NCBI GenBank assembly: GCA_040905185.1
Contig: JBBDRZ010000006.1
Span: forward strand, 8,039 to 72,038
Source: Chloroflexota bacterium
Lineage (GTDB): Bacteria > Chloroflexota > Limnocylindria > QHBO01
Reading direction: 5' to 3'
Length of the DNA stretch: 64,000 nucleotides
In this document: piece by piece, positions 57,436 through 60,385 of the stretch
How the letters are laid out: each line of letters opens with the position of its first letter
How positions within the stretch are numbered: the first letter of the stretch is position 1
Notes under the pieces: generated by a model
What the model saw: the letters and a program-made list of their open reading frames with translations, nothing else
What the model was told of the DNA's origin: nothing
Database searches by the model: none
Translations under genes and position numbers: made by a program

Positions 57436-58190
57436 GCGCGACGCCCGACGAGCTGATGGTGGCCGCCGCCGCCGCTGAGCTGGCCGGCGTCCGGACCGTG
57501 TTCGTGGGCATCGGCCTGCCCAACGCGGCCGCCATCCTGGCCCGTCGCACGGTGGCGCCGGACCTGGAGCTGATCTACGAGTCGGGGGTGGTCGGGGCGC
57601 GACCGTCCCGCCTGCCCGACAGCATCGGCGACCCGGCCCTCGTCTCAGGGGCCACCGCGACGATGAGCATGCACGACCTGTTCGCGTACTTCCTGCAGGG
57701 CGGCCGGATCGAGGTCGGGATGCTCGGCGCCGCTCAGGTCGATCGCTGGGGGAACCTGAACACCACGGTCATCGGTCCGTATGCGAACCCGACGGTGCGG
57801 CTGCCGGGGTCCGGCGGGGCCTGCGAGATCGCGCTGAACGCCGCGCGGGTCATCGTCGTCATGAGCCAATCCCCGCGTTCCTTCGTGGAGCGCGTCGACT
57901 TCGTGACCTCGCCTGGCCATCGCCATCCCGATGGCCGCCCCCGTCCGGCCTGGGCAGGCGGCGGCCCGGACACGGTCATCACCCAGCTGGGGGTCTACCG
58001 ATTCGGCACCGATGGCGAAATGGAGCTGGCGGCTCTCCACGATGGCGTCCGCGACGCCGATGTCGACGCCGCCTCAGGCTGGCCGATCCTCCGCCGCCAG
58101 CCGCTGGAGACCCTCAATGCCCCCAATCCCGACACTCTATCGGCGATCCACTCCTTGTCCGGCGCGGAACGGGAGGCGGCGCCAAGCTAA
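57432..58190 (+). CDS. CoA-transferase subunit B
   Basis: GTG start overlapping the subunit A stop (GTGA). Contains GIGLPNAA and the ESG-type motif (YESGVVG, the catalytic Glu region of family I CoA-transferase beta subunits). Confidence 0.7.
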   Translation: MSATPDELMVAAAAAELAGVRTVFVGIGLPNAAAILARRTVAPDLELIYESGVVGARPSRLPDSIGDPALVSGATATMSMHDLFAYFLQGGRIEVGMLGAAQVDRWGNLNTTVIGPYANPTVRLPGSGGACEIALNAARVIVVMSQSPRSFVERVDFVTSPGHRHPDGRPRPAWAGGGPDTVITQLGVYRFGTDGEMELAALHDGVRDADVDAASGWPILRRQPLETLNAPNPDTLSAIHSLSGAEREAAPS

Positions 58191-58206
58191 GGTCTGGCCG
58201 GATGCG

Positions 58207-58650
58207 TCAGATGCCGCTGCTAGTCGAACCAGCCGGCAACCCAGATCGCTCGCCCATGTGCATTTCCGCCGTTTCGGGATCTGCGCGATTCGGCTGCAGT
58301 TGCGCTGGGCGTCCCTCCGACCGGAGGAGTCCAAGGGTGCCTACGCTGATCTGGATATTCGTCAGGCCCGGCGCACCCCCAGCAGCGACATATCGCCGAA
58401 TGGCGTCACGAACAGTCTCACTGAAACTGGCGCCCCGACTCGCCGCGATCGTGTGGAGGGCATTCATGTCGGCCCTCTCAAGACGAAGAGAGAACTGCAC
58501 GCTATCGCTTTGCCTTGGGCGGGCGGGAAGATCGACCGCGCTCTCCCACGCATAGTCCTCAGGATTGCCGACGACGGCGCGCTCCTCCTTCGATAGATGG
58601 TCGAAGGATTGGCGCTTGGCTCTGGGCATGTTCAGCATCTCCTGGATCAC
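58207..58650 (-). CDS. brnA: BrnA-like antitoxin (ribbon-helix-helix), C-terminally extended
   Basis: VQFSLRLERADMNALHTIAASRGASFSETVRDAIRRY matches the RHH DNA-binding core of BrnA/CopG antitoxins. Sits immediately downstream of the brnT-like gene, with about 50 extra C-terminal residues. Confidence 0.55.
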   Translation of the reverse strand: MIQEMLNMPRAKRQSFDHLSKEERAVVGNPEDYAWESAVDLPARPRQSDSVQFSLRLERADMNALHTIAASRGASFSETVRDAIRRYVAAGGAPGLTNIQISVGTLGLLRSEGRPAQLQPNRADPETAEMHMGERSGLPAGSTSSGI

Positions 58651-58657
58651 GATTTGT

Positions 58658-58927
58658 TCAGCGGTCTGTTCGTTTCGTATCCCACGCGGTGAAGGCTCGC
58701 CATGTTCCTCTCGAACGGGCTCTTAACAGCACAACTGTAATCGGTCTGCCTGCGGCTGTGTATCCCAGCATGAGGTACTGCCCGCGGTGGCGCTTTCGGT
58801 TAGGAATCATTCGGCGATCGCCATCCCACGCTTCGAGGGTTTCCGCGCGCGTTACGACGGGACGGCCGGCATGAGCCTGATGCTCCTCGAAGTTGTCATG
58901 GAAGACCAGCTCGTCAAAGGCCGGCAC
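58658..58927 (-). CDS. brnT: BrnT-like toxin (DUF497 ribonuclease family)
   Basis: 89 aa. The C-terminal block RHRGQYLMLGYTAAGRPITVVLLRARSRGTWRAFTAWDTKRTDR fits the BrnT pattern (R.R....G....GR...VV...R.......ISA...T..E). Confidence 0.55.
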   Translation of the reverse strand: MPAFDELVFHDNFEEHQAHAGRPVVTRAETLEAWDGDRRMIPNRKRHRGQYLMLGYTAAGRPITVVLLRARSRGTWRAFTAWDTKRTDR

Positions 58928-58939
58928 CCGATGCTCCGA

Positions 58940-58980
58940 TAATTGTTGACGGAAGTATCCCAGGTGGGATACGATCCGTC
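58940..58980. promoter_or_regulatory. imperfect 17/18-bp inverted repeat TTGACGGAAGTATCCCA-N4-TGGGATACGATCCGTCAA in the brnT / 59007-gene divergent region (candidate BrnA operator)
   Basis: Read directly. Lies in an AT-richer intergenic region; TTGACG may double as a -35. Confidence 0.45.
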
Positions 58981-59006
58981 AATCTGAATCCCTAATGTGA
59001 TGCGGA

Positions 59007-59486
59007 GTGTTCGCCATGGAAGGTGAGGTGCCGAACAGCCCTCCCTCAGAGGAAGTTGAGATCGACTATCTCCTCCTCGCTGACTACGCGGAGGTGCTCA
59101 ACAACAAGATGTATCTGATGGGGGGAGGATGGGACAACTTCGCCCCGTCGAGCTATCCGGCGGAAATGCGATGGGGCGTGGCGGTAGGCATTCGCGTCCC
59201 CTTCCTCGAATCCAACAGACCAATCCACTTCGTATTGACCATGCGCGGGGATGGAGGGCAGGAACACTTCCGAATTGAGGGTGACTTGGAGACCGGTCGG
59301 CCACCCGGATCAAAAGGTGAGTCGATCCTCGCCCCTCTGGCGATCAATGGAACGACTCAGCTCATCGGGCCCAACTTGTTGGAGATCGTCGCAACGATCG
59401 ACGGAAAGCACTCGCGCCGTATCAGTGTCCGCGCACGACCAGCGCGAGACACATCGCCAGGCTCAAAACCGGCGAGCGGAGCCTAG
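59007..59486 (+). CDS. hypothetical protein (low-GC islet)
   Basis: 159 aa (GTG start, or ATG at 59016). No motif I recognise. Confidence 0.4.
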   Translation: MFAMEGEVPNSPPSEEVEIDYLLLADYAEVLNNKMYLMGGGWDNFAPSSYPAEMRWGVAVGIRVPFLESNRPIHFVLTMRGDGGQEHFRIEGDLETGRPPGSKGESILAPLAINGTTQLIGPNLLEIVATIDGKHSRRISVRARPARDTSPGSKPASGA

Positions 59487-60385
59487 TTCAGCAGGTCGCT
59501 AACCGAGGTCAGGAGCAGGCCCCGATCACGCAACGCGGGGACCATGATCTCCAGCGCGGCGAGAGTCTCGTATCCGCCCAGGTGCATGAGGACGATCGAG
59601 CCGCTGGCGGCGGAGGTCACGACCCCGGACGCGATCTGCTCGGCGGTCGGGCCGCCGTCGGCGATCGGCCTCCAGTCGATGGTGTCGATCGACCACAAGA
59701 TCGTCTTCGTGTAACCGACGCCGGCCGCGGCGGCCAGGACCGTCTCGTTGTAGGCCCCATACGGCGGGCGCCAGTACGGCACGGTCGGATGGCCAGTCGC
59801 CGTTTCCACGATGGCGGCCGCATCGGTCAGTTCAGCGGTGATGAAGGCGGCGCTGGGCGGACCCGCCGTCGCGCAGGGAGCCTCGGTCGGCGAGCCCAGC
59901 CCGCCGTCGCGCAGGTTGCAGTGGTGCATCGTGTGGTTGCCCAGCTCGAACAGCTCGGGATTGGCGCGGACGATGGCGAGCACTTCCTGGCCCACGGCCG
60001 TCTCGCTCATCGCGCCGGTGGGGAAGAGCGTGGCGCACACCTGGTTGGCGATCAGGAAGTCCAGGATGTCGATGGCCGGGTCGAGCCGGCCACCCATGTC
60101 GAAGGTCAGGGCCACGGCTGGGCCCGCGTTGGGGGCGATGGCAATGATCTCCCGCTCGCCAACCGGCGAGCGGTTGCCGGCGAAGCAGTTGAGGGCAACC
60201 GGCGTGGGCGTCGGACGCGGCGTCCGCGACGGGCTGGGGCTGGGGCTTGGGGGCGGGCGGGCGGTGGGGCGCGGGAAGGATGAATGAGACGCCGACGCGT
60301 TCGGTGACGCGGATGGGGCGCAGCCGGCCAGGACCAGGACGACGGTGAGGAGGAACCCGCCCGGCCGGCGCCAGCCGGCCGGCAT
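59483..60385 (-). CDS. polysaccharide deacetylase (NodB homology) lipoprotein
   Basis: Start trimmed to MPAGWRRPGGFLLTVVLVLAGC (lipobox), which avoids an overlap with the upstream gene. P/S/T linker. NodB motifs TFDMGG, HTMHH, WSIDTIDW. Confidence 0.75.
   Translation of the reverse strand: MPAGWRRPGGFLLTVVLVLAGCAPSASPNASASHSSFPRPTARPPPSPSPSPSRTPRPTPTPVALNCFAGNRSPVGEREIIAIAPNAGPAVALTFDMGGRLDPAIDILDFLIANQVCATLFPTGAMSETAVGQEVLAIVRANPELFELGNHTMHHCNLRDGGLGSPTEAPCATAGPPSAAFITAELTDAAAIVETATGHPTVPYWRPPYGAYNETVLAAAAGVGYTKTILWSIDTIDWRPIADGGPTAEQIASGVVTSAASGSIVLMHLGGYETLAALEIMVPALRDRGLLLTSVSDLLN

Follow-up and report, generated by a model that had tools for sequence, protein, structure and literature searches.

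What is a 1.3-kb islet of unusually low guanine-plus-cytosine (GC) content doing between two metabolic genes of an uncultured Chloroflexota bacterium, and do the three genes that it carries belong together? We addressed this question in a 64,000-nucleotide stretch of contig JBBDRZ010000006.1 (NCBI assembly GCA_040905185.1, positions 8,039 to 72,038), hereafter the window, in whose coordinates all positions are given. The islet encodes three small proteins, which we call T, A and D. A first-pass annotation, made from the sequence alone, had proposed that T is a DUF497/BrnT-like toxin, that A is its BrnA/CopG-like antitoxin with an extra C-terminal segment, that D is a divergent gene of unknown function, and that the whole is a horizontally acquired defence or addiction module. 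Overall, our analysis points, with moderate confidence, to a compact acquired module composed of a BrnT-fold toxin (T), a ribbon-helix-helix (RHH) antitoxin (A), a shared operator and a co-regulated third partner (D).

Recurrence of the three genes in unrelated contexts

The divergent gene, which had been left as unknown, belongs to DUF6941: D scores 42.5 bits with PF22091 (cut-off 27), over 122 of the 125 model positions, and it proved to be a recurrent partner of the toxin-antitoxin (TA) pair. Across the homologous loci that we compared (numbered L001 onwards), D is linked to T-A in at least 12 independent contexts, which cover deep divergence as well as two different gene orders. It is divergent from T-A in L001, L002, L005, L008, L009, L010, L051, L061, L087-89, L090 and L093-95, and co-directional in L177, where D is followed by T and then by A. 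Similarly, distant toxin representatives that were sampled blind were also linked to D (P0015 in L090, P0024 in L087-89 and P0078 in L093-95). The linkage extends to L051 and L061, where identity in D is only about 38% and T still carries canonical RHG/WR motifs.

A translated comparison (tblastx) of the window with eleven loci (L001-L006, L008-L010, L051 and L061) revealed similarity confined to the three genes, at about 58255-59480. Because the similarity ends at the edges of these genes, the trio sits in different contexts. For D, T and A, the identities between pairs of loci rise and fall together, with Spearman coefficients of 0.71-0.74 computed over pairs that are not independent of one another. 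The recurrence of the trio in unrelated contexts suggests an undescribed three-part TA module.

One locus, L006, retains intact A and D genes beside a T that is cut to its last 28-48 codons (L006:2823-2969). At L061:3322-3786, a more canonical BrnT-like toxin beside DUF6941 has an in-frame stop and is either a pseudogene or an assembly error. At L177:2935-4076, a frameshift in the DUF6941 gene made the gene caller fuse D to the toxin (P0014); this assembly may be a long-read one, and the frameshift may accordingly be an error. In P0028, available as a protein only, the C-terminal half of a T-like toxin is continuous with an A-like antitoxin, by read-through or as a fusion. Fusions of brnTA have been reported (PMC11980606).

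A conserved palindrome across two face-to-face promoters

The inverted repeat between T and D had been put forward as a candidate operator, and this proposal gained strength, as the repeat is conserved across loci and overlaps both divergent promoters (Table 1). Its outer arms read TTGACG/CGTCAA and its inner arms GTATCCCA/TGGGATAC, with the core at 58955-58972. The core motif, GTATCCC-N-GGGATAC, has a single occurrence in the window, and 0 of 100 shuffles contain it. When the divergent spacers of seven loci were aligned, the sole conserved block was TTGACG-N-GTATCCCA-N2-3-GGGATAC-N-GTCAA, present in all seven. The exact core was found in 4 of the 86 loci compared, all of them three-gene loci, and variants of it in L005, L010 and L090; the more distant modules L051 and L087 carry different palindromes or repeats at the same place. 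In L006, the operator half-sites are rearranged (GGGATAC-N13-GTATCCC).

A consensus scan of positions 58000-59700 returned exactly two promoter-like sites, where 0.3 were expected, and both lie face to face within the palindrome. Since both promoters have their -35 and -10 boxes inside the palindrome, occupancy of this element should repress T-A and D together. The centres of the inner half-sites are separated by 11 bp, a spacing compatible with two RHH dimers on one helix face. The locus shows the anatomy of a type II TA operon, with T and A adjacent on the same strand and the conserved palindrome lying over their promoter.

An additional operator-like half-site, TGGGATACG, falls on the codons of an invariant Trp-Asp-Thr of T, and an equivalent site is found in L001, L005, L006 and L008-L010. 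Of 9 loci, 7 use GAT for the Asp and all 9 use ACG for the Thr, whereas in the genes overall GAT makes up 28% of Asp codons and ACG 52% of Thr codons. These synonymous choices are much more uniform than codon usage predicts, a hint that selection acts on the nucleotides themselves for an auxiliary site upstream of A.

Table 1. Features of the islet, in window coordinates
Feature	Position	Strand	Details
Low-GC strain-variable insert, ~1.29 kb	58191..59482		From the CoA-transferase B stop (58190) to the deacetylase stop (59483)
A, RHH (CopG-type) antitoxin/repressor candidate, 140 aa	58207..58629	-	Mechanical ORF reaches GTG 58650
T, toxin candidate of 89 aa, divergent BrnT superfamily (RelE/BECR fold)	58658..58927	-	GTG start, GGAG 6 nt upstream
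Extra operator-like half-site TGGGATACG	58677..58685	- (strand of the sequence given)	Within T at its 3' end; ~50 nt upstream of where A starts
37-bp palindrome, candidate operator for A	58946..58982		TTGACGGAAGTATCCCA GG TGGGATACGATCCGTCAA
Promoter-like site for D	58946..58975	+	TTGACG, 18 nt, TACGAT
Promoter-like site for the T-A operon	58954..58982	-	TTGACG, 17 nt, GATACT; TG before the -10
D, DUF6941 protein, 156 aa	59016..59486	+	Mechanical ORF from GTG 59007; TAG overlaps the convergent deacetylase stop
aa, amino acids; CoA, coenzyme A; nt, nucleotides; ORF, open reading frame.

An accessory insert at a variable junction

The base composition of the islet sets it apart from the rest of the window. 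In 300-nt steps, GC falls from about 0.71 (0.70-0.72) to about 0.58 (0.57-0.60) across ~58.2-59.5 kb, and the kilobase at 58.5 kb has the lowest GC of the entire 64 kb (0.589, where the mean is 0.695 and the standard deviation 0.024). GC at third codon positions (GC3) is 0.62 in T, 0.67 in A and 0.69 in D, compared with 0.83-0.90 in the five flanking genes. The low-GC islet described in the first-pass annotation is borne out by this profile and by the lowered GC3, and the three mechanically delimited ORFs (58658..58927 on the minus strand, 89 aa; 58207..58650 on the minus strand, 147 aa; 59007..59486 on the plus strand, 159 aa) and the inverted repeat are where it had placed them, with refined starts for A and D.

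To examine the flanks, we searched metagenomes with CoA-transferase B. In L097-L099, whose flanks share about 92% nucleotide identity with those of the window, the transferase adjoins the deacetylase, the cassette is absent, and the last ~30 transferase codons are missing. In L096, which is also about 92% identical, the same junction carries another insert of 3.4 kb with TadE/TadG-like (pilus-assembly) ORFs (L096:1561-4931). Relatives that are 65-79% identical have a full-length transferase adjoining the deacetylase. Comparison with L096 and the distant relatives indicates that L097-L099 lost the tail of the transferase, and this places the insert at ~58191-59482. A larger insert that included the CoA-transferase B tail, as the blastn breakpoints against L097-L099 (58089/59469) would have had it, was ruled out by the same two comparisons.

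The cassette is an accessory, horizontally acquired insert at a variable junction. The earlier proposals of horizontal acquisition and of insertion between the CoA-transferase and deacetylase genes both hold: the insert occupies that junction, and relatives as close as ~92% identity lack the islet, showing an empty site or a different insert in its place. The junction itself (window 58090-58190 and 59469-59486) is variable among these ~92%-identical populations, in which it can be empty or hold either the other insert or the cassette.

The insert is packed to the nucleotide. The gap between the stop codons of the transferase and A measures 16 nt, and the stops of D (TAG, plus strand) and the deacetylase (TAG, minus strand) overlap in the palindrome CTAG at 59483-59486. 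This CTAG is also present at the empty site in relatives. As a genomic island, the insert shows deviant composition and absence from close relatives; the integrase, tRNA and direct-repeat signature is missing, with no recombinase or integrase ORF in the 1.3 kb, no direct repeats flanking the insert, and no tRNA anywhere in the window according to a tRNA scan. An Rfam scan of the window was likewise empty.

A divergent BrnT-superfamily toxin candidate

T itself gave no match in Pfam (PF04365 included, E<=1), NCBIfam, PADLOC, PHROGs or the sequences of the PDB, and had just four close homologues among 5.8 billion proteins. A profile built from the five T sequences and searched against 1.8 billion representatives collected 68 proteins at E<=1e-3, and 24 of the 59 that were scanned match PF04365 (BrnT_toxin), the best at 3.1e-10. 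Against the PDB, the broad T profile matched RelS best (9sdc_C, 3.6e-4), followed by 7vd7_A (1e-3). The AlphaFold2 (AF2) model of T (pLDDT 88.4) has a beta-alpha-alpha-beta4 topology, and its top two Foldseek matches in the PDB were 7vd7_A (TM 0.65) and the BrnT structure 3u97 (TM 0.58/0.65), with a probability of 1.00 and modest E-values (1e-2); HigB2, YoeB and RelE came next.

Given the PF04365 matches among its relatives, the profile matches and the predicted fold, T is, by transitive homology and modelled structure, a divergent member of the BrnT superfamily. The reading as a DUF497/BrnT-like toxin stands in this sense, through intermediates and fold, but not as a direct match to PF04365, and a key His is absent from the clade.

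Residues of importance to toxicity are K16, H17 and R72 in BrnT and K9, H10 and R69 in RelS (PMC13284704). The equivalent of BrnT K16 is kept in T, as R22. At the position of H17, T has P23, and its clade has P, R, H, I, E or A. At the position of R72, the T of the window has an Arg (R77), while the clade mostly has V, Q, T, L or M. Tested for the BrnT toxicity residues, T thus keeps the K16 equivalent, whereas the equivalents of His-17 and, mostly, of Arg-72 are not conserved in its clade. In the broader hit set, the R-H-G motif is present in 36 of 59 proteins and the W-R motif in 44 of 59. T and its four close homologues share another group of residues, H10, E14, H16 and Q17, which are invariant among the five and largely kept across the wider clade; the full invariant polar set comprises H10, E14, H16, Q17, R22, R38, N43, R44, R61 and K85. 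The ratio of nonsynonymous to synonymous substitution rates (dN/dS) of T is 0.14-0.25. Such purifying selection indicates that T is a maintained protein, the chemistry of which may differ from that of BrnT.

An antitoxin candidate with a central RHH domain

All eight A homologues begin at Met-8 of the 147-aa ORF, so the 140-aa form listed in Table 1 is the most likely one. An AGGAG lies 9 nt upstream of this start, and the gap to the stop of T becomes 28 nt, not 8. A matches the CopG-type RHH_1 family (PF01402) with 22.4 bits against a cut-off of 20.5, as well as RHH_4 and DUF6290, and PF01402 is found in 8 of 10 antitoxins of the subfamily, at best with 2.7e-7. Its dN/dS of 0.12-0.4 indicates purifying selection.

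Three parts make up the protein: a conserved segment of ~45 aa at the N-terminus (consensus RQSFDHLSxEERAVVGNPEDYAWE), the RHH domain at ~46-81, and a C-terminal tail of ~55 aa, for which eight homologues give the consensus GGAPxLTNIQxSVGSxGILRSEGRPAQLQPNRAxP. The RHH domain and the tail were found in every aligned antitoxin of this toxin subfamily, including that of L091, which has no D nearby. The "extra 50 residues" that had been taken as an oddity of this copy are hence real and conserved (50-55 residues) but are the rule throughout the subfamily. In RelB, ParD, CcdA and FitA-type antitoxins, a C-terminal tail that binds the toxin follows the RHH domain, and by analogy the tail of A is probably a toxin-binding segment.

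Membership of A in the BrnA family, which we take to be PF14384, was ruled out: A has no match to BrnA or CopG_antitoxin (among 10 relatives, 2 show PF12441, at E 0.14), and its RHH domain is central instead of C-terminal. Canonical BrnA has its RHH domain at the C-terminus (PMC11980606). Searched as a profile against solved structures, A found nothing beyond weak CopG-type matches (E>0.28); a BrnA-like antitoxin was not among them. The BrnA/CopG-like label given earlier survives in its CopG-type RHH part, and the hidden Markov model (HMM) searches that the first-pass annotation had called for give a divided answer: neither T nor A belongs directly to the named families, PF04365 and BrnA, but T does so through its relatives and A is an RHH_1 protein.

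The DUF6941 protein D

D is 100% identical to a protein of a metagenome-assembled genome (MAG) at NCBI (Chloroflexota bacterium WEE67_01325), which is annotated from the ATG at 59016; this identity makes the 156-aa form probable. PF22091 was found in 57 of 57 D homologues, and at least 290 relatives of DUF6941 exist among the GTDB species genomes, nearly all of them in Chloroflexota. The literature that we searched contains no mention of DUF6941 or PF22091. The AF2 model of D (pLDDT 88.5) is an all-beta sandwich of nine strands, and the protein is predicted to be cytoplasmic. D carries no DNA-binding domain and no enzymatic signature. Its dN/dS is 0.03-0.25, again indicating purifying selection.

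Many D genes stand alone. In one large clade of these, made up of L023, L029, L030, L037, L040 and about 17 further loci, a divergent Mn/Fe superoxide dismutase gene lies ~200 nt upstream of D. Another clade, of 27 stand-alone D loci, has a different conserved synteny.

The conserved C-terminal extension of A and the presence of a third conserved gene recall toxin-antitoxin-chaperone (TAC) systems, in which case the extension would serve for chaperone addiction, with D as the dedicated chaperone. We consider this extremely improbable: SecB is absent from the listed fold matches of D, which is an all-beta sandwich, D is transcribed divergently and not as the third gene of the operon, and the extension is also present in the relative that lacks D nearby (L091). 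A TAC/SecB identity for D was rejected on the basis of fold.

The idea that D is a phage or plasmid protein was likewise discarded, as D has no relatives in phage records, no PHROG match and one distant match in a Nocardia "plasmid" without T-A nearby. The same findings bear on an anti-phage role, in which D would sense a phage cue and release T in an abortive infection. The defence label of the first-pass annotation found no direct support, since T, A and D all lack a PADLOC match at E<=1, and the flanks of the cassette are metabolic genes and not a defence island. A defence function is in our estimation very unlikely.

Partner, neighbour or regulator

Several observations weigh against a three-part toxin-antitoxin module. 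On the side of the toxin, T has no direct match to PF04365 at E<=1, and the narrow profile of its clade reached a non-significant hhalign E-value of 0.12 against the Salmonella 7VD7 toxin, the sequence of which was approximate here (rebuilt from an alignment, with the first two residues guessed). In addition, with the His-17 equivalent absent and the Arg-72 position varying in the T clade, ribonuclease (RNase) activity may be altered or lost. On the side of D, of the 80 genome loci with D, about 75 have no T-A neighbour, and at these D is of native GC and lies in conserved synteny, which implies that D has a function independent of T-A. At least one T-A relative (L091) is without D. Finally, the fold of D matches only generic immunoglobulin-like (Ig-like) and carbohydrate-binding module-like (CBM-like) structures and offers no functional clue.

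In a neighbour-joining tree, the T-A-linked D genes fall on several deep branches among the stand-alone ones. Taken together, the recurrence of the trio, the stand-alone D genes and L091 indicate that the association of D with T-A is recurrent and old, but facultative.

The stand-alone D genes in native, syntenic surroundings, the pair without D in L091 and a D fold that is not recognisably TA-related would all be expected if this were an ordinary two-gene type II TA system, with DUF6941 a mere neighbour (cargo or a host gene) and the shared spacer a product of tight packing. This explanation deserves to be taken seriously, yet we find it rather doubtful. The linkage spans identities from 83% down to ~30% for D and from 87% down to ~26% for T in varied flanks, and it outlasts the change of gene order in L177. 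Furthermore, A and D persist in L006 after the decay of T, and a single conserved palindrome encloses both promoters.

The T stub of L006 can also be read differently. T may have ceased to be a toxin, leaving a regulatory cassette in which A controls D and T acts as a co-repressor or ligand-binding partner. The loss of the His-17 and largely of the Arg-72 equivalents, both important for toxicity in BrnT and RelS, fits such a cassette, as do the in-frame stop in the T of L061 and the overlap of the operator with the D promoter. However, T is under purifying selection with an invariant polar set of its own, the canonical His is dispensable in some RelE-type toxins, and the more canonical RHG/WR relatives are also linked to D (L051, L087). 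We regard a purely regulatory cassette as unlikely, and the three-part toxin-antitoxin module remains our preferred reading.

Comparison with known systems

The module resembles type II TA systems of the BrnTA kind but departs from BrnT/BrnA in HMM match, catalytic residues and RHH position. With BrnT/BrnA of Brucella abortus (3U97) and Salmonella (7VD7), it shares the toxin-first order, a small toxin of beta-alpha-alpha-beta4 topology and an RHH antitoxin. BrnA is known to be autoregulated, and autoregulation by A is presumed. Unlike the BrnT/BrnA pair, T matches PF04365 only indirectly and its clade has not conserved the His-17/Arg-72 equivalents; unlike BrnA, A has a central RHH domain with a ~55-aa conserved tail and matches neither BrnA nor CopG_antitoxin; and a third conserved gene, DUF6941, is added. 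The BrnT literature that we examined describes no three-gene form.

T also has a parallel in the toxin of RelS-RelI from Mycobacterium tuberculosis (9SDC), which is also BrnT-like, lies outside the core Pfam family and precedes its antitoxin. Here too there are differences: RelI belongs to the helix-turn-helix (HTH) proteins whereas A is an RHH protein, RelS keeps the K9/H10 pair whereas T lacks the Lys-His, and RelS-RelI has no third gene.

A TA pair with a conserved third gene is also found in tripartite systems, namely TAC (toxin-antitoxin-SecB chaperone), omega-epsilon-zeta and paaR-paaA-parE, and TAC antitoxins share with A a C-terminal extension. In contrast to the third components of these systems, D is a DUF6941 beta-sandwich that is neither SecB-like nor DNA-binding, and it is usually divergent from a shared operator. 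Similarly, A would share with RelB, ParD, CcdA and FitA-type antitoxins both a toxin-binding tail behind the RHH domain and a palindromic operator as the site of repression, and it differs from them in the ~45 aa conserved before the RHH domain, in its BrnT-like partner and in an operator that lies across two face-to-face promoters.

A working model of the module

In the model that we propose, the tail of A would wrap around T and neutralise it, while RHH dimers of A, alone or as part of a T-A complex, would bind the 37-bp palindrome. From the anatomy of the spacer, this binding would silence the T-A operon and D at once. Loss or depletion of A would then free T and induce D, and the freed T would most likely act on RNA or on the translation apparatus, as BrnT and RelS do. 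D would most likely be a binding, sensing or modulating subunit that works through protein binding, rather than a second toxin; this part of the model is speculative.

A more specific version can be offered tentatively. DUF6941 may be the true third subunit of an undescribed tripartite TA family, found mainly in Chloroflexota, that binds either A (for example, one of its two conserved non-RHH segments) or T and thereby sets the release of the toxin. The active site of T might have been relocated, with H10/E14/H16/Q17 taking the place of Lys-His/Arg, and the stand-alone D genes might be domesticated survivors of the module. We see this version as a possibility, well short of a probable one.

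Significance

As a single TA islet, the locus is ordinary. The cassette is small and its host is uncultured, so its value lies in the pattern at the level of the families and not in this one copy; at that level we judge the interest to be moderate to good. BrnT-type toxins are among the least understood members of the RelE superfamily, and a 2025 review in mBio lists the ribosome dependence of BrnT as unknown. The palindrome with its two face-to-face promoters provides a clean, testable model of one repressor acting over two divergent units. If a sizeable subfamily of these toxins escapes PF04365, has replaced its catalytic His and is recurrently tied to a third protein by way of a common operator, it would extend both the classification of TA systems and the range of their tripartite architectures. 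For DUF6941, the D-T-A linkage provides a first functional handle.

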